DNA of 55,741 nt from positions 1 to 55,741 of the IMG/VR virus record IMGVR_UViG_3300012919_000008. One strand, written 5' to 3'. The DNA is from a virus (lineage: Duplodnaviria; Caudoviricetes). Of the stretch, positions 11,361 through 44,688 are shown in pieces (within the stretch, counting starts at the first letter, position 1; each line of letters begins with the position of its first letter). Below the pieces are notes generated by a model. The model had not been told where the DNA came from and did not search any database. It saw only the letters and a list, made by a program, of their open reading frames with translations. Both the position numbers and the translations under genes were made by a program.

Positions 11361-12419
11361 TTATACTAAGCAATAACGAGCAGTTGAGATAGCTTCTGGT
11401 CGAAGTATCTTACGCCCATACAAATGCATTCCTCTGACAATGTCAGCGAAGCTATCAGGATCACGATAAGTTTCGGTCTTGTTAATCTGTTCAGCAGTTG
11501 CCACAGCAGATGAATGACCAGCTACAAGCACACCAAAGTTACTGGCGTTTGTGCCACCAGTGGTTGATGGTCCTGTTCCTACAGAAGGTAGGTTGTTGGA
11601 CATGTACACCTTGAAGCCATGAAGATTGTTCAAGACTAAACCATTTTGTAATCCAGTTCCACCAAAGTCGCTATTTAGAAGACGAGAATCTTCATCTTTT
11701 AGAACTTCAATAAAAACTGGGTCAACAACAAGCCAACGGTTATTAGTGTCAACATTCTGCTGATCTAAGAGTCTAGCCATACGTGCCACTATTTGTAGTG
11801 GGTTTGCATTACCAGAACCGGGAGTAGCAGAAGTTGCACCACCTGCACGTGCTTGAATACCAATTGCGTTACTGGAAGAACCACCAAAAGAATCAGCCAT
11901 GATTTTCATGGAAGATAGTAGTTCATCAGAACCAGCAGTTGATACTGCTTTTGCACCGTTAACTGTAGTGTTAGCAGTGTCAGGAGCACTGTGTATTGCT
12001 GACTGTTTAAAACCAGATAGATAACCAAGTACGTCTTGGTCATACTGATCAGATAGTCTGTAAGCTGCACGATCACTTGCAAGTTGCTGGAAGTTAATGT
12101 GCGAATGAGCTTCTTCAATGTCATCGACTTTAAATGCAAAGTAGTTTGCTTTGTCAATGGTTAGTGAGAACTCTTCGTCATCCAGATCTTGTGGAGTGAT
12201 TGTAGTACCACGTGCATACTCTTTGACCGTGATCTCTGGTTCTTTGATCACTTTAACGCTATCGCCCATGTTGGCGATTTCACCAAAGTAATCGCTATTA
12301 GTAATAGCTTCAACAATTGAAGCCTTACGAAAAGCTACTTGTACCTGCTTAGAGTAGATAATTGGTGAAAAATTACCATTAGGCAGGTTGCCGTAGCCTG
12401 TAGCGGTTGAAAATGCCAT
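11361..12419 (-). CDS. Major capsid protein
   Basis: NFSPIIYSK...GEIANMGDSVK...DSFADIVRGMHLYGRKILRPE, the T7-supergroup/HMO-2011-type capsid pattern; AAGGAG RBS. Confidence 0.92.
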   Translation of the reverse strand: MAFSTATGYGNLPNGNFSPIIYSKQVQVAFRKASIVEAITNSDYFGEIANMGDSVKVIKEPEITVKEYARGTTITPQDLDDEEFSLTIDKANYFAFKVDDIEEAHSHINFQQLASDRAAYRLSDQYDQDVLGYLSGFKQSAIHSAPDTANTTVNGAKAVSTAGSDELLSSMKIMADSFGGSSSNAIGIQARAGGATSATPGSGNANPLQIVARMARLLDQQNVDTNNRWLVVDPVFIEVLKDEDSRLLNSDFGGTGLQNGLVLNNLHGFKVYMSNNLPSVGTGPSTTGGTNASNFGVLVAGHSSAVATAEQINKTETYRDPDSFADIVRGMHLYGRKILRPEAISTARYCLV

Positions 12420-12448
12420 TTTATTTTCTCCTTATACGACATCCCAAT

Positions 12449-12608
12449 GCGTATCAAAACATATACGCTATGTTATCTACTTTAAGGGCCGATTGATAAA
12501 GAGGTGGTATATGTAAGGCCAACTACACATAGGCTCTTCTTATTCGGGTATCTTAGAAGTTTGGTGTAGTATCTGTGGGTAGTCTTTTGAAAAGGGCCAC
12601 ATTACTAC
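12449..12608 (-). ncRNA. Structured 5' leader of the major capsid mRNA (candidate cis-regulatory RNA)
   Basis: Three hairpins (12449-12468, 12483-12555, 12566-12608), with three CC/NYAC internal loops and a G-U pair that forms only on the minus strand. Confidence 0.55.
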
Positions 12609-12616
12609 TAATTATG

Positions 12617-12648
12617 CATAGTTATATGCACAATTATCTGTTTGTCAA
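12617..12648 (-). promoter_or_regulatory. Sigma70-like promoter for the capsid operon
   Basis: TTGACA-16 nt-TATAAC-TATG on the minus strand. Confidence 0.65.
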
Positions 12649-12654
12649 CACCTT

Positions 12655-13509
12655 TTATCGTGCTGAACCAGATACGTCATAAATAAACTTACCGTTACGT
12701 ATAGCTTCCATTATGTCATCTGAATGCTTCTCATATTCTCTTGCAGACATACGTTGTACATCAGATTCTTTATATGAGTTGCCACTATCGTCACTGGCAG
12801 GTTTACTTCTTTTACCTTTAGTGGATACAGACTTTGCTGCATCCTTAGATGATGATTTTTTTGCAGTTATGTTTCTGTCTGCTTTATATAAGTCAATAGC
12901 TCTAGCAGCAGAACGTGCGTCATTGTCATTCTCATACAGAGCATTCTGTACCCATTGTGGTTGTTCTTCTGCCCATGTGTGAAAGTCATCATCGTTTCTT
13001 ATATCTTCAAAATCAGGGTGCATTTGTAGCAACTCAGTTTCTGCACGTTGCTTACTTACACTCTGTTGCATATCGTCTAGAGCTTTTACCTTTTCTTCTA
13101 GACTAGCTTGTTGTTCAGCAGCTTTCTTAATAGCAATTGTTTCTACTATACCTGCAACATCAGGATACTCTTTAGCCCATGTTTCTATATCTTCGTCAGA
13201 CTTAGGAAGTTGTATTTGCTTCTTGGTTGACTGCTCTAGTTGCGCTTTAAGATTACTTATCTCTGCTTTTAATTCGTCTGTTTGTTTTTGCTGATGCCTA
13301 CGTAGATCAGAATATCTCTTCTTAAAAGTTCTTTCTTCTGCATTCTTAGGTTCTTCTTCTGCTTCTTCTGATGAGGCATCTTGCTTTTGTCCTTCAATTA
13401 ACTCTTGCAGTTCTTCCTCTTCCTGTTTTAACTTTTCTTCTCTTGAGTATGGCCTAGATATAAACGCTGTTTTCTTAGGTTCTACTTCTACTTGTGTTAC
13501 GTCTGACAT
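12655..13509 (-). CDS. Capsid scaffolding protein
   Basis: Acidic coiled coil (FKKRYSDLRRH, HPDF, C-terminal IMEAIRNGK) just upstream of the capsid gene. Confidence 0.75.
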   Translation of the reverse strand: MSDVTQVEVEPKKTAFISRPYSREEKLKQEEEELQELIEGQKQDASSEEAEEEPKNAEERTFKKRYSDLRRHQQKQTDELKAEISNLKAQLEQSTKKQIQLPKSDEDIETWAKEYPDVAGIVETIAIKKAAEQQASLEEKVKALDDMQQSVSKQRAETELLQMHPDFEDIRNDDDFHTWAEEQPQWVQNALYENDNDARSAARAIDLYKADRNITAKKSSSKDAAKSVSTKGKRSKPASDDSGNSYKESDVQRMSAREYEKHSDDIMEAIRNGKFIYDVSGSAR

Positions 13510-13524
13510 TTTATATTTCCTTTC

Positions 13525-13566
13525 GTTGGGGCTATGGTAGCCTTATTAGGGGCATAGGTAGCCAAC
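13525..13566 (-). ncRNA. Hairpin in the scaffold 5' UTR with two symmetric CC/CUAC internal loops
   Basis: RNA GUUGG CUAC CUAUG CC CCU AAUA AGG CUAC CAUAG CC CCAAC lies immediately upstream of the GAAAGGA RBS. Confidence 0.6.
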
Positions 13567-13578
13567 ACATGTGGTTTA

Positions 13579-15417
13579 TTATCTTGAAGCTAAACCACCA
13601 CGCTTCATCTTCTTTTGTTTTTTTCTTTTAGATATAAAACCACCTTTATTTAATTGACCTCCTGCTGGTCCGTCAGGTGTTCCAACTCCTACTCCTGCTC
13701 CCGCTGCATCTCCAGCAGTTTGAGGTCCACCACCCATACCTGATGGATCTCCTGCTGCTGGTCCCGCTGCTGGTCCTGATGGTCCTGCATCACCTACACC
13801 ACCTGACATGCCAATAGGTTCTCCTACTTGTGGATCTGGATCTGGTGTTGTTTGATCTTTTGTTTTAGCTTTATCTTTTAATTCTTTTTCTTTATTGCTT
13901 ATCAAACCAGCTAAAGTAGGATTTGTTTTACCAAGGGACAGATCATCTCGCATCTGATTGGATATAGATATTCCTAATTGTTCTGCTTTATCCATCTGCT
14001 CTTTTGCATCTTTACCTATAACCTCATTGTCTTGGTTAGTGCTAAAATCTGGTGTGCTGTAACCACCTATAGCGTTAGCAGTAGATCCCGGTGGTGCTTC
14101 ACCTGCTCCGACAGCGGCTGCGTGTGCTACAACTTGAGATTTTGAAACTCCTGTTGCTCTCGATACAGTGTCTCTTGCTATGTCAACACCATATAAAGCA
14201 CCTAGAGCTTTTTCTGCATCAGAAATAGCTGTGTCTAATTGTGCATCGTATGCTGCCATTTCTTGAGCAAATCCAATTGGATCATTTTTCATCATTTCTG
14301 CCATTGCTTTCGCATCTTTATCATCTTGCTTTTTACCAAAGCTAAAATCAGGTAACTGCATACCAAGGGCTTTAGCTCCTACTTTTGATGCTACAGATGG
14401 TCCTAACATCATCTCTCCTATAGTCATTGCAGTTCCAACAATATCTGATGCTACTTTACCAAAACCGCTAGATATACTCTGACCATACTGTGCTTGCTCA
14501 AGAGGTGACATCTCACTAAAACCTTTACCGCTTACATCAGGGTCCATGCTAGACCTTGCTTTTTTTAATGTAGTTGTTTCTTCTGGTTTTTCAGGTTGTG
14601 CTCCTGCTTCTTGTTGTTGCTCGGGTGTTACTTCAGTATATCCCGGTGGTGGCTGATATGATGGCACACCTCTAAAGAAAGGTATAAATAGTTGATTACC
14701 CTGTGCATTTCTAAATTCTTTTACCTCATAGTTAAACTGAGGTTGTCCTACAAGTTGCTCAAACCTACCTGAAGCAGGAACATTAGCAAAGTCACTTAGA
14801 TCACCACCAGTTTGTAATTTAACTGGCATACCACCTTTAGCCATATTCTGTAACATAGCTGATGTATATTCTTCTGTTTTTCTCTGCTCTGCATTTTTTC
14901 TATTTTCAGGAGTGTCCTCTATAAAACCTTGAGGTATGGGTGTTACAGGTACGTCATTAAATACAGCTATTAAACGTGTGTCTGACGGATTGTCTGGATC
15001 AAAGTAACGCTTTTGAAATAATGATTTGTTTGTAGATTCTACAACACCACCTACGTTCATCTTTTTGTCGTCATCTTTCTCGTCAGTTATAGTGCCACCA
15101 ACGATAATTAAATCGGATGGCTCAAAAGGTACATCTTCATCTAGCACAGCTTCGTCAGAGTTACCCATCTGACCCATGTCTTCCATACGTTGTAATCCAG
15201 CTTTTGCCTCATCACGTAACTTCATTAAAAATCTTAACCCTAGAAAGCGTGTAACGTCAGCAGGAAACACAAACTCTCCCGGACTTAGCTTTGCATCTAT
15301 GTCATCTCTAACTTCTTCTTTAAGAGAACCAGTGGGTACATCATTTCCTGACACAGGATCTTTTGTACCACCCTCATCTTTTAGTCCACCTAAATCAAAC
15401 ATTTCCATCTGTTGCAT
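13579..15417 (-). CDS. Hypothetical virion-associated protein
   Basis: 612 aa between portal and scaffold; DDIDAKLSPGEFVFPAD; several M/L-x-x-GG motifs. Confidence 0.6.
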   Translation of the reverse strand: MQQMEMFDLGGLKDEGGTKDPVSGNDVPTGSLKEEVRDDIDAKLSPGEFVFPADVTRFLGLRFLMKLRDEAKAGLQRMEDMGQMGNSDEAVLDEDVPFEPSDLIIVGGTITDEKDDDKKMNVGGVVESTNKSLFQKRYFDPDNPSDTRLIAVFNDVPVTPIPQGFIEDTPENRKNAEQRKTEEYTSAMLQNMAKGGMPVKLQTGGDLSDFANVPASGRFEQLVGQPQFNYEVKEFRNAQGNQLFIPFFRGVPSYQPPPGYTEVTPEQQQEAGAQPEKPEETTTLKKARSSMDPDVSGKGFSEMSPLEQAQYGQSISSGFGKVASDIVGTAMTIGEMMLGPSVASKVGAKALGMQLPDFSFGKKQDDKDAKAMAEMMKNDPIGFAQEMAAYDAQLDTAISDAEKALGALYGVDIARDTVSRATGVSKSQVVAHAAAVGAGEAPPGSTANAIGGYSTPDFSTNQDNEVIGKDAKEQMDKAEQLGISISNQMRDDLSLGKTNPTLAGLISNKEKELKDKAKTKDQTTPDPDPQVGEPIGMSGGVGDAGPSGPAAGPAAGDPSGMGGGPQTAGDAAGAGVGVGTPDGPAGGQLNKGGFISKRKKQKKMKRGGLASR

Positions 15418-15622
15418 TTACATGATCCCTTAACCGTTTAATTCTACTGTAGGCTGTAAGAGCACCCTGCGCTCTGTGTATTGCTACCATGTCATTTGAC
15501 TGTTCTAAAACTTTTATCTCTCGTTCTAGTAACATATCTATATAATTACTGAAGTGTTGCCATTGGCGGTTGTTGCTGACCAGTGGCTTGAGCTTCTGGA
15601 GCAGCTCCTTGTTGTGGTCCAC
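15395..15622 (-). CDS. Small protein downstream of portal (probable GTG start at 15622)
   Basis: C-terminal part of the listed 119-aa ORF (HRAQG motif); the upstream part overlaps the portal gene. Confidence 0.55.
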   Translation of the reverse strand: MDHNKELLQKLKPLVSNNRQWQHFSNYIDMLLEREIKVLEQSNDMVAIHRAQGALTAYSRIKRLRDHVNATDGNV

Positions 15623-17669
15623 TGAACCCTTGCTCACCCGGTGTTGGTGCTTGTCCTGTTCCAATCGTTCCTCCTCCTGTTCCTGCTGTATCCATTGGGT
15701 TAGTGCCGGGAGGTGGAGGTGTTCCAGCTTGTTGTGGTGGCTGTTCTGGTCCAAAAGTTTTCATTATCTCAGCCTGTATAGATGCTTCATCCATGTTGTT
15801 TGTAACTTTGTCTGGATCAAGATCAAGAGACTTTGCAATCTCACGAATGATATAATTAAACTTAGCAAACGGTGCAAGTGCTGGATTAGATGTAACACTT
15901 AAAAATTGCATCAATCTTTGACTACGCACTTCATTAGCCATCAAACTTTCTGTCCCACGTGCCACTACTTCAAGATCTCCTTTGATTGATGGATCAAAGT
16001 CAAACTGCATATTAAACTGAAATAGTCCTTCTCCCAACGGTTTTAGTAGATAGTCATCTACGTTTTTAATTACTGTCTTAATGCCACCTGCTGCTGCACC
16101 CATCAACATAGATATGCCTGATGCAGTTCTACCTACACCTGCTATACCTGTCTGTCCATGTGCAAAAGATGGAAAGCCTGTGCTCTCATCTGAAAGCTGT
16201 CTAGCTTTATCAAACATCATCATGTTCTCACTAGAAACATTTGGATACTTTGTACCAAACAATGCCTGTCCCGGTGCACCACCCTGTCTTCTAAACACTT
16301 TACCCGGATAAACCGTAAGATCCTGTCCGGGTACTAAGTTTGTTTCGTCTACCTCTATAAGTAAGTTACCTGAAAGCACAGCATTGTCTACTGCCATACG
16401 CATAAAGCCATTCATTAATGTCTGTGTATCGTCCATGTTCTCTGCAATACCAACACCAAAGAAGCTGTAAGGATTAAGTTCATAGGGTGCTGCAACGTAT
16501 GGTATACGTGCTGGTTTAAACGGATTAAGAACTACACGTAGTAGTCTACCGTTACATACCCATATGTTTGCCTGTAACTCATCTAGGTCTTTTAGATCTT
16601 GTGGTATGTCAATCTCTTGTTCTTCTAGTAGATCTGTATCTACAGTACCCCAATACTCCATAACCTCAAAACGATCTATGTCATGCTCTGGTGCATAATC
16701 TGATAGATCGTCTTCCCAATACAGTTTAGTGTAGTTTTCACCTTCTGCTATCACTTCTTCAATCACGCTGTCTCTAAAGTATGGACGCTTCTTAAGAGCA
16801 CGTAGTTGTGATCGTGACATCTTATGCCTCTCTATCACATACTGTGCTTCATCCATGTTATTAGCGTCTGGATCTGGATAAAAGTTCCACACAGATACAT
16901 GTGATACCTGTGGTACTGTCTTAAACATAGGATCGTATTCACCGTCTTCATTCCAGTTAGGGTATTCTTTGTCAATAGCAAATGGCCCCTTCATTACACC
17001 TGTGCCAAATAAGGACATCTCAAATGCTGTGCTTCTTAAATGTTTACTTGCACCTGATTCTTCTAACTGATCGTGTATCTTTTTCTGCATTCGTTTTGCT
17101 GCAACCATTGCAGGGCTAACTGTAATTGCAGAGCCTGTCTGACCCACACCTTCTCTAACACCTTCTAAGCCTCCTAACTTATTTTGATATTCACCTAGTC
17201 TGTCCATCAAAGACTGTTGTGTAGCTCCCGGTTCTAAATCATTACCATCTCCAGCAAATCCATACGGACTGTTTAGTATATTAGTTACCTCTTCTGTTTC
17301 TTTAGGGTCAAAGTGCACATCACCTGCTACACCGTCAGGTAGTTGTGTTGGGTCTATACTTAGTGGAAACTTTTGATTAGCAAATAGTACATCAACTATC
17401 TGTCCGTATGCAGCTAGAGTTTTTGTCTTTGTTATCTTTATAAATACTCTAGATCTTTCTGATTCTGTAAACTGCACATCAGAACCGTACAGTCCTCTGT
17501 AATTACGATATGCTTTTATCCAACGCTCTTCATCTTGATACCTATAGTCTTCTGCTCTTTTATATCTTTCATTAATATATGGTATTAAATTAGATATACC
17601 TTCATCCATAGACTCTTCTGCATCTTCAAGATGAATAGCATCTTCTTCCATAATAAAATCATCTGTCAT
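15546..17669 (-). CDS. Portal protein
   Basis: About 707 aa with FGTGVMKGP, WNFYPDP, SFFGVG, RTASGISML; follows the terminase; ATG at 17669 has an AAGGA RBS. Confidence 0.9.
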   Translation of the reverse strand: MTDDFIMEEDAIHLEDAEESMDEGISNLIPYINERYKRAEDYRYQDEERWIKAYRNYRGLYGSDVQFTESERSRVFIKITKTKTLAAYGQIVDVLFANQKFPLSIDPTQLPDGVAGDVHFDPKETEEVTNILNSPYGFAGDGNDLEPGATQQSLMDRLGEYQNKLGGLEGVREGVGQTGSAITVSPAMVAAKRMQKKIHDQLEESGASKHLRSTAFEMSLFGTGVMKGPFAIDKEYPNWNEDGEYDPMFKTVPQVSHVSVWNFYPDPDANNMDEAQYVIERHKMSRSQLRALKKRPYFRDSVIEEVIAEGENYTKLYWEDDLSDYAPEHDIDRFEVMEYWGTVDTDLLEEQEIDIPQDLKDLDELQANIWVCNGRLLRVVLNPFKPARIPYVAAPYELNPYSFFGVGIAENMDDTQTLMNGFMRMAVDNAVLSGNLLIEVDETNLVPGQDLTVYPGKVFRRQGGAPGQALFGTKYPNVSSENMMMFDKARQLSDESTGFPSFAHGQTGIAGVGRTASGISMLMGAAAGGIKTVIKNVDDYLLKPLGEGLFQFNMQFDFDPSIKGDLEVVARGTESLMANEVRSQRLMQFLSVTSNPALAPFAKFNYIIREIAKSLDLDPDKVTNNMDEASIQAEIMKTFGPEQPPQQAGTPPPPGTNPMDTAGTGGGTIGTGQAPTPGEQGFSGPQQGAAPEAQATGQQQPPMATLQ

Positions 17670-17679
17670 TACATTTTCC

Positions 17680-19236
17680 TTAATATCCGAAGACTGCATC
17701 TGCTACTTGCATCTGGCTAGGTGGTTTTCTACTTGGATCGTAATCAAACAAGTTAAACCTTGGTCTTGACATTATACCATACCGTAATGCATCATACAAG
17801 TGGTCTTCTGCGTGTGTATCTATATCTTCAGGATTGCGTTTGTCTATCGGTAATGCAGGTAGTTGCGATATTAGATTTGTACATCCTGAAAAGAATACTA
17901 ATCTAGGTTCTTCTGTAAACTCATCTACCTGTAATCTTCTGTGTATCTCGTTCTTACCCGATACCCTACTGCCTTTACTTCTGTCTGATGGCCTCCACCT
18001 GCATCCTCTTTGTATCATCTGCTCTGCAAGTGATGGTCCTGTGTCACCACGTTTGTGCCAGAGAGAACTATCCAGCACACCATACTTTATATTACCGTCA
18101 CCTTCTTCTAGTTCTAGTACCATCTCTGCTAAATCAACAGCTAAAACTTTTGATACGTACAACTCTCGATATACTATTATCTGCTCATTCGGTGCAACAG
18201 CAAACCAAAGTACACCACTATAAGAACCATAGCCATAGTCACATGCCCTAAACTTAACCCAATTATTTGGTATATCAAAAGGCTCAACTACGTGTATACT
18301 TCTGTTAAACTCTGTAAACGCTGCACCTTCTTTTATATCCCAATCGCCCTCTAGCAATTGTTTTCTTTGATGTTCAGGCAACGATAATAGCATTGCCTCG
18401 TAGTCACCTGTCTCAGCTAGGTATGGGTTATCTGCTAACCTAGCTGGTATAAACTTTCTTCTAAATAATGCTTTACCTGCTTTTGCGTGTCCTGCTGGAT
18501 ACTTTAGTGTTTCACCTGTTTCTATATCCGTAGCTGGAAAACTCTTGTTGTATGGAGCAGGATCAATAAACATTTTCTTGACCCACTGATGTCCCGGTCC
18601 TCCGGGGTTTGTTGTAGCCCTCATGTATACACCTAGTTCTGGTGCAGTGGAACGTAGACGAGATCGCATATAGTTCCATGCGAAAGGTGTAGACCATTGC
18701 GTTAGCTCATCAAAACCTATCCAGCTAAATGCTAGACCCTGATAGCGCATTACGTCATCATCTCTATCCAGATATGACATCCAAAGTTTTGCTCCAGATG
18801 GTGCGGTCCACTGCATTTTTCTCTCTGACCATTTTATACCGGGACATACTTTTGGGTATAACTCCTGCGACTTAGATATAAGTTCTCTTAACTCCTCTGT
18901 TGTATGTCGCAGTAACAATCCACTAAAAGATGGATGGTCAAAGTATCTGGTAGGATCAGCTAACATTGCGTAGCTCTTACCACCTCCAGCACTGCCACCG
19001 TACAATACCTCTCGTTCTGGTGCAGCTAAGAACTCTGTCTGTGGTCCTTCGTTTGGTTTAAATACTACATTAAGCTCTCGCTCTAATTCTGTAGTGTCAT
19101 ACTCCAGCCTCTGAGGGGCCAACTCTTTTTGCACCGACTCTGCTGGTTTCGATTTCTTCTGCCTTTTTGATCGCCTTTTCCGCATACTCTGCCCACTTGC
19201 GGAGGCTTCTAGCTTTGTCCTTACGCTGTCGCTCAT
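17680..19236 (-). CDS. terL: Terminase large subunit (true start may be downstream of 19236)
   Basis: Walker A YGGSAGGGKS, Walker B IGFDEL, motif TNPGG, nuclease DYG and DHLYDALRY. Confidence 0.93.
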   Translation of the reverse strand: MSDSVRTKLEASASGQSMRKRRSKRQKKSKPAESVQKELAPQRLEYDTTELERELNVVFKPNEGPQTEFLAAPEREVLYGGSAGGGKSYAMLADPTRYFDHPSFSGLLLRHTTEELRELISKSQELYPKVCPGIKWSERKMQWTAPSGAKLWMSYLDRDDDVMRYQGLAFSWIGFDELTQWSTPFAWNYMRSRLRSTAPELGVYMRATTNPGGPGHQWVKKMFIDPAPYNKSFPATDIETGETLKYPAGHAKAGKALFRRKFIPARLADNPYLAETGDYEAMLLSLPEHQRKQLLEGDWDIKEGAAFTEFNRSIHVVEPFDIPNNWVKFRACDYGYGSYSGVLWFAVAPNEQIIVYRELYVSKVLAVDLAEMVLELEEGDGNIKYGVLDSSLWHKRGDTGPSLAEQMIQRGCRWRPSDRSKGSRVSGKNEIHRRLQVDEFTEEPRLVFFSGCTNLISQLPALPIDKRNPEDIDTHAEDHLYDALRYGIMSRPRFNLFDYDPSRKPPSQMQVADAVFGY

Positions 19237-23546: not shown

Positions 23547-23843
23547 TTAACACTTCCACTTCCTTAGAGCTTTATTGATCCTTGAGTTTGGATCATTTCT
23601 AGTTTTTGCACTAGTGAGCTTCTTTTTCATGCCACCCATTCTAGCACAGAAAGACTTACGTCGATTAGCAGCCTTTGATCCTTTTTTAACTTTGCCAGTT
23701 ACAGGTGCTTTTAAATTATGCCCTGCACGTTTAGCCTTTGCCCTACCTGCTGCCGTTAAACCTCCAGTAGGACTCTTATCTTTCTTTGTAAACTTTACAG
23801 GTCTACGTTTTCTGCCCGGTCTAGCCATCTTTCCATCCTTCAA
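23547..23843 (-). CDS. Small basic protein (DUF6321-like)
   Basis: GGLTAAGR...RRKSFCARM...ALRKWKC. Confidence 0.6.
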   Translation of the reverse strand: MKDGKMARPGRKRRPVKFTKKDKSPTGGLTAAGRAKAKRAGHNLKAPVTGKVKKGSKAANRRKSFCARMGGMKKKLTSAKTRNDPNSRINKALRKWKC

Positions 23844-24117: not shown

Positions 24118-24354
24118 CTATTGCCTATACGTGATAGTATATTCTTGTAGTCCATCTATGTGCTCCTTATATGGGTCTAGATCTATGCTTGCAATTACGG
24201 CATCAATATTACTGTGCCAATATCTTAAAAATCTATTTATACGTGGATATTCTGGTATTACATCTACAGTGCCCCACGTAAATTCCTGCACTAAGTTGTT
24301 ATAGTCTGGCAAAAAGTAATAAACACGTAGTAATACTGGTTCTCTAACTAGCAT
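24118..24354 (-). CDS. Usg-like protein
   Basis: YYFLPDY..LVQEFTW...D..PEYPR..RFL.YW...ID matches the alphaproteobacterial Usg pattern, recognised by eye. Confidence 0.55.
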   Translation of the reverse strand: MLVREPVLLRVYYFLPDYNNLVQEFTWGTVDVIPEYPRINRFLRYWHSNIDAVIASIDLDPYKEHIDGLQEYTITYRQ

Positions 24355-24522: not shown

Positions 24523-24628
24523 TTAATTGCCTCACTATAAGTGTACACTTAAGTGTTATATCTAAGTATTTTTTAGTTTTATTTAAGGGAGTTTTTAGTG
24601 TATCACTTTAAGTGATCTATTATATGTA

Positions 24629-24661
24629 CATAGTTATACTCATTAGATCAACCCCTGTCAA
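24629..24661 (-). promoter_or_regulatory. Sigma70-like promoter heading the leftward arm
   Basis: TTGACA-17 nt-TATAAC-TATG. Confidence 0.7.
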
Positions 24662-25063
24662 CTAAAAAATTAAAAAATACTAAAAATAATTAAAAATATC
24701 GTAAATGTGTGTCTAATATGCAACATATTATTGTCAGTTGCTACTGTGGTTAACACTTAATTTTCCTAATCTGTGTGTTTGTACAAGCATATATACGTAC
24801 CAACGGGGGGTGGACCATGCCCTGACTGCCATTTTTTTAAAAATAATCTTTTTTTTGAGACATTTTTTAAGATCCGCAGAAAATAAGGCTTTTTTGTCTC
24901 GACTCAAGATTTAAAAGGCAACTGATATGGCATCAGTTCCTTTCATTTGATCTTTTCGATGGTGGGGTTTTTGGGTGGTGCTCTTTTGACAACAGACAAC
25001 TATGAAATGAAGCACCCTATCCCCTCACTTCAAATGGTCCACAAAATACCACCCCATCAAATC

Positions 25064-25080
25064 GGTGGGACTGTCCCACC
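25064..25080. promoter_or_regulatory. Palindrome copy 1, GGTGGGACTGTCCCACC
   Basis: Perfect 8-1-8 inverted repeat that recurs four times. Confidence 0.8.
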
Positions 25081-25087
25081 TTAAATT

Positions 25088-25110
25088 ATTTCGGCTGCAG
25101 TAGCTTAAAC
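25088..25110 (+). repeat. 23-bp direct repeat, copy 1 (ATTTCGGCTGCAGTAGCTTAAAC)
   Basis: Identical to 26018-26040. Confidence 0.9.
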
Positions 25111-25113
25111 CAT

Positions 25114-25142
25114 TTGACTGTATTTGATCACTTCTATATAAG
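25114..25142 (+). promoter_or_regulatory. Early sigma70-like promoter
   Basis: TTGACT-17 nt-TATAAG. Confidence 0.65.
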
Positions 25143-25196
25143 AGTAGTTATTCCACATCGTTTGAATGTGGTTTTTAACCAATGAGGTAAACAAAA

Positions 25197-32785: not shown

Positions 32786-33253
32786 ATGCGTAAACCTATG
32801 ACAAAAGAACAGCGAGAAGCATCAGCTAAACGTCTTGAAAAAGCACGTGCAGCCAAACGTAAACCTGCCAATTTAAGTGTGCATGAGAGTGTACGTAACC
32901 TAGACAGTAGTCACCCTGTGAGCGTGGACAAAGTTAAGTCTTGGATTAAACACAACCAAGAGATGCTATCTTCTCTAAAAATGTCTTGTAGAAGAGATAA
33001 GGTTATACAGAAAAAACTTAACAATGAAATGAATATACTAGAAATGTATATACATAACATGAAGTTTTATTTACGCACTGGTTTGTGGCTAGACAGTGTG
33101 TACGGTAAAGACAGAGAGCACAGTGTAACTAGAAAGTGTACTGTTATGGCTTACGATAAGAATGGTAACGTTAAAAGATCAGTAGGTGTGCATTACCCTG
33201 ACATAGGACTGTACACAAAAGAGATGCAACAACAAGAAATGGAAGCGACATGA
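32786..33253 (+). CDS. Hypothetical protein
   Basis: AGGAG RBS; 155 aa. Confidence 0.65.
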   Translation: MRKPMTKEQREASAKRLEKARAAKRKPANLSVHESVRNLDSSHPVSVDKVKSWIKHNQEMLSSLKMSCRRDKVIQKKLNNEMNILEMYIHNMKFYLRTGLWLDSVYGKDREHSVTRKCTVMAYDKNGNVKRSVGVHYPDIGLYTKEMQQQEMEAT

Positions 33254-34131
33254 GGCCAATATCTGTGAAACGATTAGTCAACCTTTACGTGCAATCACCT
33301 GAGTTTAATCGCTTACGTGATAAAACTAAAGTAGACTATACAAGGTTCTTAAAAGTGTTGACAGATAGATTTGGAGAGAAGACAGCCAACAGTGTGACAG
33401 GCAAGGACGCAAAGATAGCCTACGAAGAGTGGGTTAAGCGTGGCATACAGTTAGCCAATCATGTAGCTGTTGTGTCTGGCAGGGCATACAGGTATGGGTT
33501 AGACATGGAGTATGTCAAGAACAATCCCTTTGCTTTGGTGCGTAAGCTAACACCTGCATCACGTAATGTAGTGTGGACAGAGGATCAGGTACGTGAGTTT
33601 CTTAACGTAGCCTATGGTGACTTTGTTTACCGTAACGTGGGACTGATAGTGCAGATGGCATACGAGTGGTGTCAACGTGTAGGTGACATGCGTATGCTTG
33701 AGTGGCAGTGCATAGACTTTGATAACAACCGTCTGAACCTGATACAATCTAAGAGAGGTGCAGTGGTGCACTTACCTATATCTGAATCTCTGTTGGATAT
33801 GTTAAAAGAACAGAGAGATGACTTTGACTTTCAGAAGTATGTCGTTCCCATGCCGACTCCTAGAGATGGAGAGTACATACCATTCTCTATGGAGAGGTTA
33901 TCTAAGATAGGCAGGAGGATTATGCGACAAGCAGGGCTACCTGAAGAGCTTAGACTTATGGACTTACGTAGAACTGGCACAACTGAGATGGTAGAGGCAG
34001 GTGTACCACTACCACAGATCATGTCTGTGACAGGACACGCTAATCCACAGTCAGTTAAACCCTACATAAAGAACACTTTCCTTAGTGCTAACAGTGCGTT
34101 GACTGCACGACAACAGTTTAAGGAAGAGTGA
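33250..34131 (+). CDS. int: Tyrosine integrase/recombinase
   Basis: CQRVGD (R), QSKR (K), MDLRRT, VTGH, terminal Y; upstream of primase as in HMO-2011-type phages. Confidence 0.85.
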   Translation: MRPISVKRLVNLYVQSPEFNRLRDKTKVDYTRFLKVLTDRFGEKTANSVTGKDAKIAYEEWVKRGIQLANHVAVVSGRAYRYGLDMEYVKNNPFALVRKLTPASRNVVWTEDQVREFLNVAYGDFVYRNVGLIVQMAYEWCQRVGDMRMLEWQCIDFDNNRLNLIQSKRGAVVHLPISESLLDMLKEQRDDFDFQKYVVPMPTPRDGEYIPFSMERLSKIGRRIMRQAGLPEELRLMDLRRTGTTEMVEAGVPLPQIMSVTGHANPQSVKPYIKNTFLSANSALTARQQFKEE

Positions 34132-44472: not shown

Positions 44473-44688
44473 ATGGGTATGAGAAGGAACTTAAATAAAA
44501 ACGATGCACCTCTGAAGATACAGTTTAAGAAAGGCTATCATGCATTTCAAAGAGGTGCTAAGTATACCAACCCATACAGGCATAACTCTATGCAATATAG
44601 AGAATGGGAGAGAGGCTATAACAAAGCCTACTTTGAGAATCTGAGAAAGGTAAAGTATGAAGAACAGCTTAGAACAGTCAGCAATTAA
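44473..44688 (+). CDS. Small protein with RMF-like pattern
   Basis: KGYHAFQRG....NPY.......REWERGY. Confidence 0.45.
   Translation: MGMRRNLNKNDAPLKIQFKKGYHAFQRGAKYTNPYRHNSMQYREWERGYNKAYFENLRKVKYEEQLRTVSN

Follow-up and report, generated by a model that had tools for sequence, protein, structure and literature searches.

The window analysed here is a stretch of 55,741 nucleotides (nt), the full length of IMG/VR virus record IMGVR_UViG_3300012919_000008, and the element of interest lies in two leaders on its minus strand, which precede the genes for a putative scaffold protein and for the major capsid protein. Both leaders contain one repeated asymmetric internal loop, whose short strand is 5'-CC-3' (rarely UC) and whose long strand comprises 3-5 nt ending in A-C (CUAC in the scaffold leader; CAC, CAAC, UUAC and similar strings in the capsid leader). 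All copies are asymmetric internal loops of 2 x 3-5 nt within hairpin stems and, in scaffold and capsid leader alike, one hairpin carries two of them in opposed orientation, as a dyad. The element shows strong covariation and is an RNA family new to Rfam and to the searched literature. At roughly even odds (a probability of about 0.5), these leaders are a cis-regulatory operator, made of modules that resemble the RNA motif known as the C-loop, which co-ordinates the synthesis of scaffold and capsid. A preliminary description of this DNA had quoted five such loops on the minus strand, and every one of its strings is indeed there; its suggestion that the five are copies of a single conserved module is borne out by the relatives, in which the loop letters are conserved and the stems vary.

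In the scaffold leader, the element is a dyad hairpin of 42 nt (13525..13566, minus strand), identified by its sequence, its covariation and a covariance model, and its RNA reads GUUGG-CUAC-CUAUG-CC-CCU(AAUA)AGG-CUAC-CAUAG-CC-CCAAC from 13566 to 13525. From the base upwards, the following parts can be distinguished on that strand: (i) helix P1 (13566-13562 with 13529-13525); (ii) the outer loop (CUAC 13561-13558 opposite CC 13531-13530); (iii) helix P2 (13557-13553 with 13536-13532); (iv) the inner loop (CC 13552-13551 opposite CUAC 13540-13537); (v) helix P4 (13550-13548 with 13543-13541); and (vi) the apical loop AAUA (13547-13544). The Shine-Dalgarno (SD) sequence AAGGA (13522-13518) and the start codon (13509-13507) of the scaffold gene come next (13507..13522, minus strand), with the start codon 15 nt downstream of the hairpin.

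Relatives were gathered by two routes: (i) a loop-only DNA pattern, which matched at least 120 viral contigs and for which the flanks of 80 loci were fetched; and (ii) a search of viral contigs with the capsid protein, which confirmed 595 of 600 candidate stretches and from which 80 loci were kept and phage HMO-2011 was added. A scaffold homologue adjoins the pattern in 73 of the 80 pattern-matched loci and starts 12-33 nt downstream of it in 72 of them, the other one being listed at -56, which is taken as a miscalled start; of the other seven loci, six represent coding sequence or unrelated repeats, and one is truncated at the locus end. Among the 80 fetched loci, the loop-only pattern is specific for the scaffold-leader element. 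In total, 94 distinct scaffold hairpins were obtained, 60 of which were aligned for the analysis of covariation.

These hairpins follow the pattern GG-CUAC-P2-CC-CC..P4..GG-CUAC-P2'-CC-CC, where P2 may be, for instance, CUAUG/CAUAG, UUAUC/GAUAA, CUAAC/GUUAG, UCACC/GGUGG or UCAUC/GGUGG. Across the 60 aligned hairpins, 87.7% of the stem cells are paired versus 76.0% in shuffles, with none of 500 shuffles reaching the observed value, and 109 cells carry double changes versus 44 in shuffles; in controls with slid strands, 22-43% of the cells are paired. At two positions of P2, U-G outnumbers every other pair (24/60 each), so that the scaffold pairing is possible in sense RNA only. A subset of 32 rows was reached via the capsid protein and is thus unbiased for the RNA pattern: all 32 have CUAC as the 3' long strand and one of CUAC, CCUAC and CUUAC as the 5' long strand, with C first in the long strands of both loops, and 31 have CC as the 5' short strand. 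The distance to the ribosome-binding site is also kept: 86 of the 94 distinct hairpins were parsable, and in these the start of the SD core falls between -2 and +5 nt relative to the hairpin's 3' end, with the ATG 7-18 nt beyond the core. A single-loop scaffold hairpin with a UUCG tetraloop, GG-CUAC-CCAGC-UUCG-GCUGG-CC-CC, occurs in three loci (L055, L056 and L069).

The covariance model of the scaffold hairpin (R1) finds it with 59.1 bits (E 1e-15), the sole match in the window under E 0.1. R1 misses the copies in the capsid leader, its next-best match in the window reaching 12.7 bits (E 0.16); the copies have the loop in common but do not form one sequence family.

The central domain of the capsid leader is a long irregular hairpin of 82 nt (12479..12560, minus strand), in which two loops are nested. 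On that strand, helix P1 pairs ACUU(C)UAAG with CUUAAAGU and is followed by the outer loop (AUAC 12551-12548 opposite CC 12489-12488, within 12555-12483), helices P2 (CCGA with UCGG) and P3 (GAAGAG with CUCUUU), the inner loop (CC 12533-12532 opposite CCAC 12508-12505, within 12539-12498, with a G-U wobble) and helix P4 (UAUGUGUAG with UUACAUAUA), closed by the apical loop UUGGCC. According to RNAfold, this nested structure is the minimum-energy fold of 12478-12560 (-18.1 kcal/mol, z score -2.42).

A total of 73 sources (the window included) span both the scaffold stop codon and the capsid start codon, and from these 55 distinct short capsid leaders were taken, 44 of which were aligned and 11 left out as near-duplicates. 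By anchor-based parsing, both nested loops and their flanking helices were found in 44/44 aligned leaders, always in the order P1, long strand ending in AC, P2, P3, CC and P4 hairpin, and then, in the 3' half, long strand ending in AC, P3', P2', CC or UC, and P1'. The letters of the helices change among subgroups: (i) P1 is UAAG/CUUA, GAG/CUU, CGGA/UCUG or UAAGA/UCUUA; (ii) P2 is CCGA/UCGG, CCA/UGG, CUGA/UCAG or CUAAU/AUUAG; and (iii) P3 is GAAGAG/CUCUUU, UGAG/CUCA, AUGG/CCAU or UUUAG/CUAAA. The short strand of the inner loop is CC in all 44 leaders and that of the outer loop is CC in 32 and UC in 12; the inner long strand is CAC in 23, CAAC in 16, CACAC in three, CCAC in one and CUAC in one. 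Outside the promoter and the SD and start region, the only invariant RNA positions in the 44 leaders are a lone A78 and sites in or adjacent to the loops, the invariant loop positions being ..AC-C, G-CC, ..AC-C and G-(C/U)C.

On the gappy MAFFT alignment of 44 leaders RNAalifold returned three spurious pairs, and subgroup alignments and anchor-based parsing were used instead. In 23 HMO-2011-like leaders it recovered P2, P4 and the upper part of P3, and 11 of the 16 pairs showed compensation. When the fuller structure was scored on the same 23 leaders, 85.1% of the cells were paired versus 71.9% in shuffles (0/500 reaching it), 69 cells showed double changes versus 24 in shuffles, and slid controls gave 32-41%; past its two G-C pairs P3 is poorly supported (66% paired). 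The covariation and loop conservation anticipated for relatives of the HMO-2011 type therefore both hold, in 60 scaffold hairpins and in 23-44 capsid leaders.

A further copy of the loop lies at the beginning of the capsid leader, in hairpin HP1 (12574..12601, minus strand), which reads UGUGG-CC-CUUU(UCA)AAAG-ACUAC-CCACA and is lengthened by GUAGUA/UACUAC to 12607-12566. RNAfold recovers HP1 weakly (z -0.34). The HP1 loop is present, with covarying stems, in 35 of the 55 distinct leaders (36 matches, one of them false). The HMO-2011-like subgroup has no HP1 loop; its first hairpin is a different one, whose apical loop often contains GCUAC. The loop set that had been described is accordingly present in the window as a whole, but its HP1 copy is not universal.

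Both elements are kept in a distant relative from soil, Sinorhizobium phage phiM6. Its scaffold leader reads GG-CUAC-CCACGA-CC-CCUAA..UUAGG-AUGAC-UUGUGG-CC-CC, with AGGAG directly after, and is matched by R1 with 17.6 bits (E 0.002). Its capsid leader reads AAAGA-CUAC-CCAUA-...UUAG-CC-CCCUC..GAGGG-AUAC-CUAA...UAUGG-CC-UCUUU, a layout that is also the minimum-energy fold (-15.7 kcal/mol, z -1.84).

Taken alone, the loop pattern is common: a loose scan of the window returned 88 matches in minus-strand RNA and 101 in plus-strand RNA, and GGCTAC is unenriched (21 sites versus 20.25 expected). The scaffold element, for its part, can be read as two direct repeats GGCTAC-N5-CCCC, and from both facts it could be argued that the copies are a site in DNA (direct repeats GGCTAC...CCCC recognised by a DNA-binding protein) or plain chance. 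This is barely credible, given that (i) the two N5 segments covary and are mutually complementary, and the U-G pairs would be A-C mismatches on the other strand; (ii) a strict scan of the 55 distinct capsid leaders gave 67 sense versus 10 antisense matches; and (iii) the element is kept as far as phiM6. The window alone would be insufficient in this respect, and chance is excluded because of the covariation, the loop conservation and the strand asymmetry in relatives. The sense-only U-G pairs and this asymmetry likewise uphold the earlier placement of the element at the RNA level, on the minus (sense) strand. A scan of the window for further copies, as in a regulon, yielded none that was convincing; an extra copy at 24562-24467, behind a second promoter, was rejected since it runs into a small open reading frame (ORF).

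As had been supposed, no recognised RNA family accounts for the element. Rfam 15 gave 0 matches in the whole window and, with permissive filters, the best match in 12380-13640 was freshwater-2, with 20.8 bits versus a gathering threshold of 49.9 (E 1.8). Several known types of RNA were considered and discarded: (i) mimicry of 5S rRNA or of a ribosomal-protein leader is without Rfam support; (ii) a kink-turn does not fit, as the loop strands of the marine phages are without G (CC/UC against strands of A, C and U), the sole G being that of AUGAC in phiM6; (iii) in an operator of the kind bound by RNA-phage coat proteins the signal is a bulged A plus an apical loop over the start codon, and here the conserved letters are in internal loops; (iv) an intrinsic terminator or attenuator does not fit, as neither leader contains a terminator-like site on its minus strand; and (v) pairing of GGCUACC with the 3' domain of 16S rRNA was dropped, since that segment is itself base-paired in helix 45. 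The full text of the main comparative study of the HMO-2011-type phages nowhere uses the words promoter, intergenic, secondary structure or noncoding, and no title on an RNA motif was found among the listed matches of a non-exhaustive search of the literature naming HMO-2011.

C-loops occur in rRNA helices. By the published description, such a loop is asymmetric, often has C as the first base of its longer strand, and contains two cytosines that form triples around an exposed A; the C-loop of loop 26 of potato spindle tuber viroid is reported to be bound by the protein VIRP1 (PMC9516175), and the C-loop has been called an RNA-protein binding site (PMC2952876). The loop studied here is similar in that it is an asymmetric internal loop in a hairpin, with long-strand cytosines flanking an A (CAC, CUAC), conserved letters and variable stems. 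By contrast, its short strand consists of two cytosines and its long strand, often of 4-5 nt, is not always C-initial: those of the capsid outer loop and of HP1 often start with U or A. The likeness concerns two-dimensional features alone, the base triples that define a C-loop being a matter of three-dimensional structure. We know of no C-loop used as a repeated module in phage leaders.

Such a module might also act without any partner. Each leader would then be a self-contained structure, in which C-loop-like three-dimensional modules and a compact fold protect the 5' end and set the access of ribosomes, for example through the balance of an SD mimic, an anti-SD and the real SD. We consider this rather improbable, even if several observations agree with it: base triples of the C-loop type could explain the conservation of the loop with no reader at all; HP1 starts 4-17 nt past the predicted transcription start, like hairpins that stabilise 5' ends; the 5' strand of capsid P1 is SD-like and its 3' strand anti-SD-like (together with the short strand, the latter is the best SD-complementary 9-mer in 17/44 leaders and ranks in the top 5% in 28/44); and no RNA-binding protein was found among the products of the window. 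On the other hand, identical loop letters turn up within five different stems and on two messages that belong to one pathway, which is more typical of a shared recognition signal, the sequestration of the SD is inconsistent among relatives, and the scaffold hairpin lacks complementarity to the SD of its gene.

The operator reading starts from this recurrence: the loop letters are fixed, the stems change, and the loop is used two or three times per leader in two messages of one pathway, which together point to a recognition signal. The loops would serve as docking sites for a single trans-acting reader, most probably a protein, which may act as a dimer. In the scaffold message, whose hairpin touches the SD, the bound reader would plausibly control initiation, blocking or clearing the access of ribosomes. 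In the capsid message, the reader might stabilise or open P1, whose 3' strand plus CC resembles an anti-SD, and the real capsid SD would thereby be freed or trapped. One signal would thus couple the output of both head-building proteins.

A number of observations weigh against this operator. In the window, the minimum-energy fold of the scaffold hairpin according to RNAfold adopts another register (GGCUA with UAGCC, -11.7 kcal/mol), the dyad register having -10.5 kcal/mol, and the folds are thermodynamically modest (z -1.2 to -1.8 for the scaffold hairpin). The distance from loop to loop is 5 bp in the scaffold leader versus about 13-14 positions in the capsid leader, for which reason one rigid dimer cannot read both layouts alike. 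The capsid dyad lies approximately 45-60 nt upstream of its SD, and simple occlusion is therefore excluded there; folds of whole leaders show no consistent trapping of the SD, and SD sequestration as a universal switch was rejected in view of its heterogeneous pairing (mean probability 0.46, range 0.06-0.98). In four loci (L017, L019, L024 and L061) a promoter TTGAC..TGATATAAT ends at the first GGCTAC of the scaffold hairpin, so that a transcript from it would start in the outer loop or in P2 and would have no P1 and only the inner loop. Finally, a Pfam scan of the 66 ORFs of the window found no recognisable RNA-binding domain that could designate the reader, and the C-loop triples mentioned above could keep the loop conserved with no partner.

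By position and charge, the candidate readers are the scaffold-like protein, the capsid protein, an upstream protein of 612 amino acids (aa) with a basic C-terminus, and the basic DUF6321 protein encoded at 23547-23843. Sequence searches of the PDB returned no relatives for either the 612-aa or the scaffold-like protein. A host factor is possible too, because the hosts of the named phages matched by this DNA are all Alphaproteobacteria. A narrower proposal, which we regard as tentative and on the doubtful side, is that the CC / N-Y-A-C loop is a feedback module of head assembly, in which unassembled scaffold or coat protein, or another virion protein (e.g., the 612-aa protein with its KRGGLASR tail), binds both dyads and so sets the ratio of scaffold to coat. 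If true, this would give tailed phages their first defined RNA operator for the autoregulation of scaffold and capsid, and would add a new class of protein-binding RNA module in a very abundant group of ocean phages. The target is compact, as it comprises a 42-nt hairpin at the scaffold ribosome-binding site and matching capsid loops whose exact letters can be mutated.

The balance of scaffold versus coat is known as a phenomenon in phage P22, whose scaffolding protein autoregulates its own synthesis post-transcriptionally, and to our knowledge no RNA operator has been defined for such a balance in tailed phages. The analogy with P22 drawn in the preliminary description is one of concept, with a head module of P22-type coat and a common idea of post-transcriptional scaffold control, and it goes no further: in P22, a mere 13 nt separate gene 1 from the start of gene 8, whose stop codon is overlapped by gene 5, so comparable leaders do not exist there, and an R1 search of the first 9 kb of P22 found nothing. 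In phage translational operators, a structural or regulatory protein sets translation via a small conserved RNA signal near the ribosome-binding site, as do the coat-replicase hairpins of MS2, Qbeta and PP7 and the operators of T4 gene 32 and regA. The present element resembles them in that signal and differs in that an internal loop is what would be recognised, in its 2-3 copies per leader, in its presence at two genes and in the distance of the capsid copies from the SD.

Phage T7 offers a different comparison: its gene 10 is a capsid gene with its own strong promoter and a folded 5' leader, and its RNase III sites are irregular hairpins with internal loops between late genes. The differences are that the promoter is here of the host sigma-70 type, not one for a phage RNA polymerase, and that the leader of about 190 nt holds a nested dyad. 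The elements might, in the same manner, be processing sites of RNase III or RNase E, whose cuts split the messages of the head genes and leave stabilising hairpin ends. They do sit between genes of a long same-strand operon, the interrupted helix of about 13-30 bp has the form of a dyad, which suits a dimeric enzyme, and the named hosts are all Alphaproteobacteria, so a conserved host enzyme is possible. This explanation is nonetheless unlikely: RNase III is barely sequence-specific, yet the loop letters are near-invariant; the 13 bp of the scaffold hairpin are short for this enzyme; and RNA contigs cross the capsid leader unbroken, although these contigs show no ends.

The contigs in question come from four metatranscriptome runs of four studies and cover the capsid gene through its leader, and one metatranscriptome contig joins the end of the upstream gene and the start of the scaffold gene; they are to be read with caution, as DNA carry-over is possible. 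Contig ends at about 12655-12662 in three runs were discarded as a transcript end, for they are upstream of the predicted promoter, at the switch to the variable end of the scaffold gene; the fact that the scaffold region is without cover in three RNA runs is not a finding.

The capsid leader, of about 190 nt, is predicted to be transcribed from the capsid gene's own consensus promoter, a sigma-70-like promoter (12621..12648, minus strand) with TTGACA at 12648-12643, a 16-nt spacer and TATAAC at 12626-12621; its hexamers and spacing agree with the sigma-70 type (16-18 nt), and transcription is predicted to start near 12614. Neither hexamer varies among the 44 aligned leaders, whose spacer is 16-17 nt, and the promoter pattern has five sites in the window versus 0.52 expected. 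That the capsid element follows directly after a consensus promoter and consists of stem-loops with internal loops recalls the put and nut sites, i.e., RNAs which act on RNA polymerase in processive antitermination and which could here let late transcription continue through the long head-tail operon; in addition, the 3' strand of P3 in the window, CUCUUUAUCAA, resembles boxA. The boxA-like string is, however, limited to the subgroup of the window, the scaffold copy has no promoter in most relatives and no sense-strand intrinsic terminators were found in these leaders, so that such a role is very improbable.

An inverted repeat, UAAUUGUGCAUA / UAUGCAUAAUUA, is centred on the capsid -10 hexamer (12608-12637, minus strand); it may serve as a DNA operator covering the -10, or fold as a hairpin when RNA reads through. 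Comparison of the window with L001, whose capsid protein is 99% identical, shows a change from C to T in one arm, matched by one from G to A in the other. A second promoter of the capsid type, TTGACA-N17-TATAAC-TATG (24633-24661, minus strand), heads a minus-strand operon.

Between the central domain and the capsid gene there is a 3' hairpin, GCGUAU(AUGUUUUG)AUACGC (12449..12468, minus strand), upstream of the capsid SD. Its arms co-vary in close relatives (e.g., GUGUAC/GUACAC), and no sense-strand U-tract follows it. The capsid SD AAGGAG (12433-12428) and the start codon (12419-12417) occupy 12417..12433 (minus strand), the start codon being about 60 nt downstream of the central domain.

Upstream of the scaffold leader, hairpin HP0 (13567..13603, minus strand) has its 5' arm in the final codons of the 612-aa gene and the stop codon of that gene (13581-13579) in its loop. 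Its core arms are GUGGUUUA and UAAACCAC, and it is kept with altered arms in 47 distinct relatives according to RNAfold (GUGGAUUA/UAAUCCAC, UCUAGC/GCUAGA and UAGCGG/CCGCUA, for instance); no U-tract comes after it. The codons of the 5' arm encode the conserved basic C-terminus ...KRGGLASR, and HP0 stops a few nt before the dyad hairpin.

By its sequence, the window belongs to a podophage of the HMO-2011 type. In blastn, the 2.2 kb that surround the element match Puniceispirillum phage HMO-2011 with 73.7% identity over 82% of the query, and the same query also matches Roseobacter CRP phages, with 17 phage records altogether, including four rhizobial ones. The named phages among them infect SAR116, Roseobacter and rhizobia, all of them Alphaproteobacteria. 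On the minus strand, the order of genes is: (i) terminase (17680-19236); (ii) portal (15546-17699); (iii) the 612-aa protein, of no known family (13579-15417); (iv) the scaffold-like protein of 284 aa, highly charged and belonging to phrog_13678, a family of unknown function (12655-13509); and (v) the major capsid protein (11361-12419), assigned to phrog_267, major head protein (E 4e-64). The name scaffold for the product of 12655-13509 is a putative one, suggested by the position of its gene and by its charged, helical-looking composition. The capsid protein has a weak match to PF11651, the P22-type coat, and the coat of HMO-2011 is annotated likewise. HMO-2011-type phages are described as a dominant, broadly distributed group of marine viruses (PMC9038755).

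The spacer between scaffold and capsid genes measures 215-297 nt in 63 of the 73 sources and 858-930 nt in the other 10. In these 10 (L014, L022, L025, L028, L029, L039, L044, L049, L061 and L074), the scaffold gene and the capsid promoter are separated by an additional gene, which codes for 212-228 aa, and the promoter and a leader of 204-245 nt remain joined to the capsid gene.

Elsewhere in the window, a tyrosine-integrase-family gene (33250-34131, plus strand; PF00589, E 3e-20) lies in the plus-strand module and hints at temperate potential. The minus strand also encodes the very basic DUF6321 protein (23547-23843) already named and a Usg-like protein (24118-24354), and a weak match resembling a ribosome modulation factor (44473-44688, plus strand) has 24.5 bits, under the cut-off of 27.9. 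About 670 nt between divergent operons (24523-25196) contain no convincing ORF and hold long G-rich and C-rich complementary segments; this region may function as a replication origin or encode a non-coding RNA.

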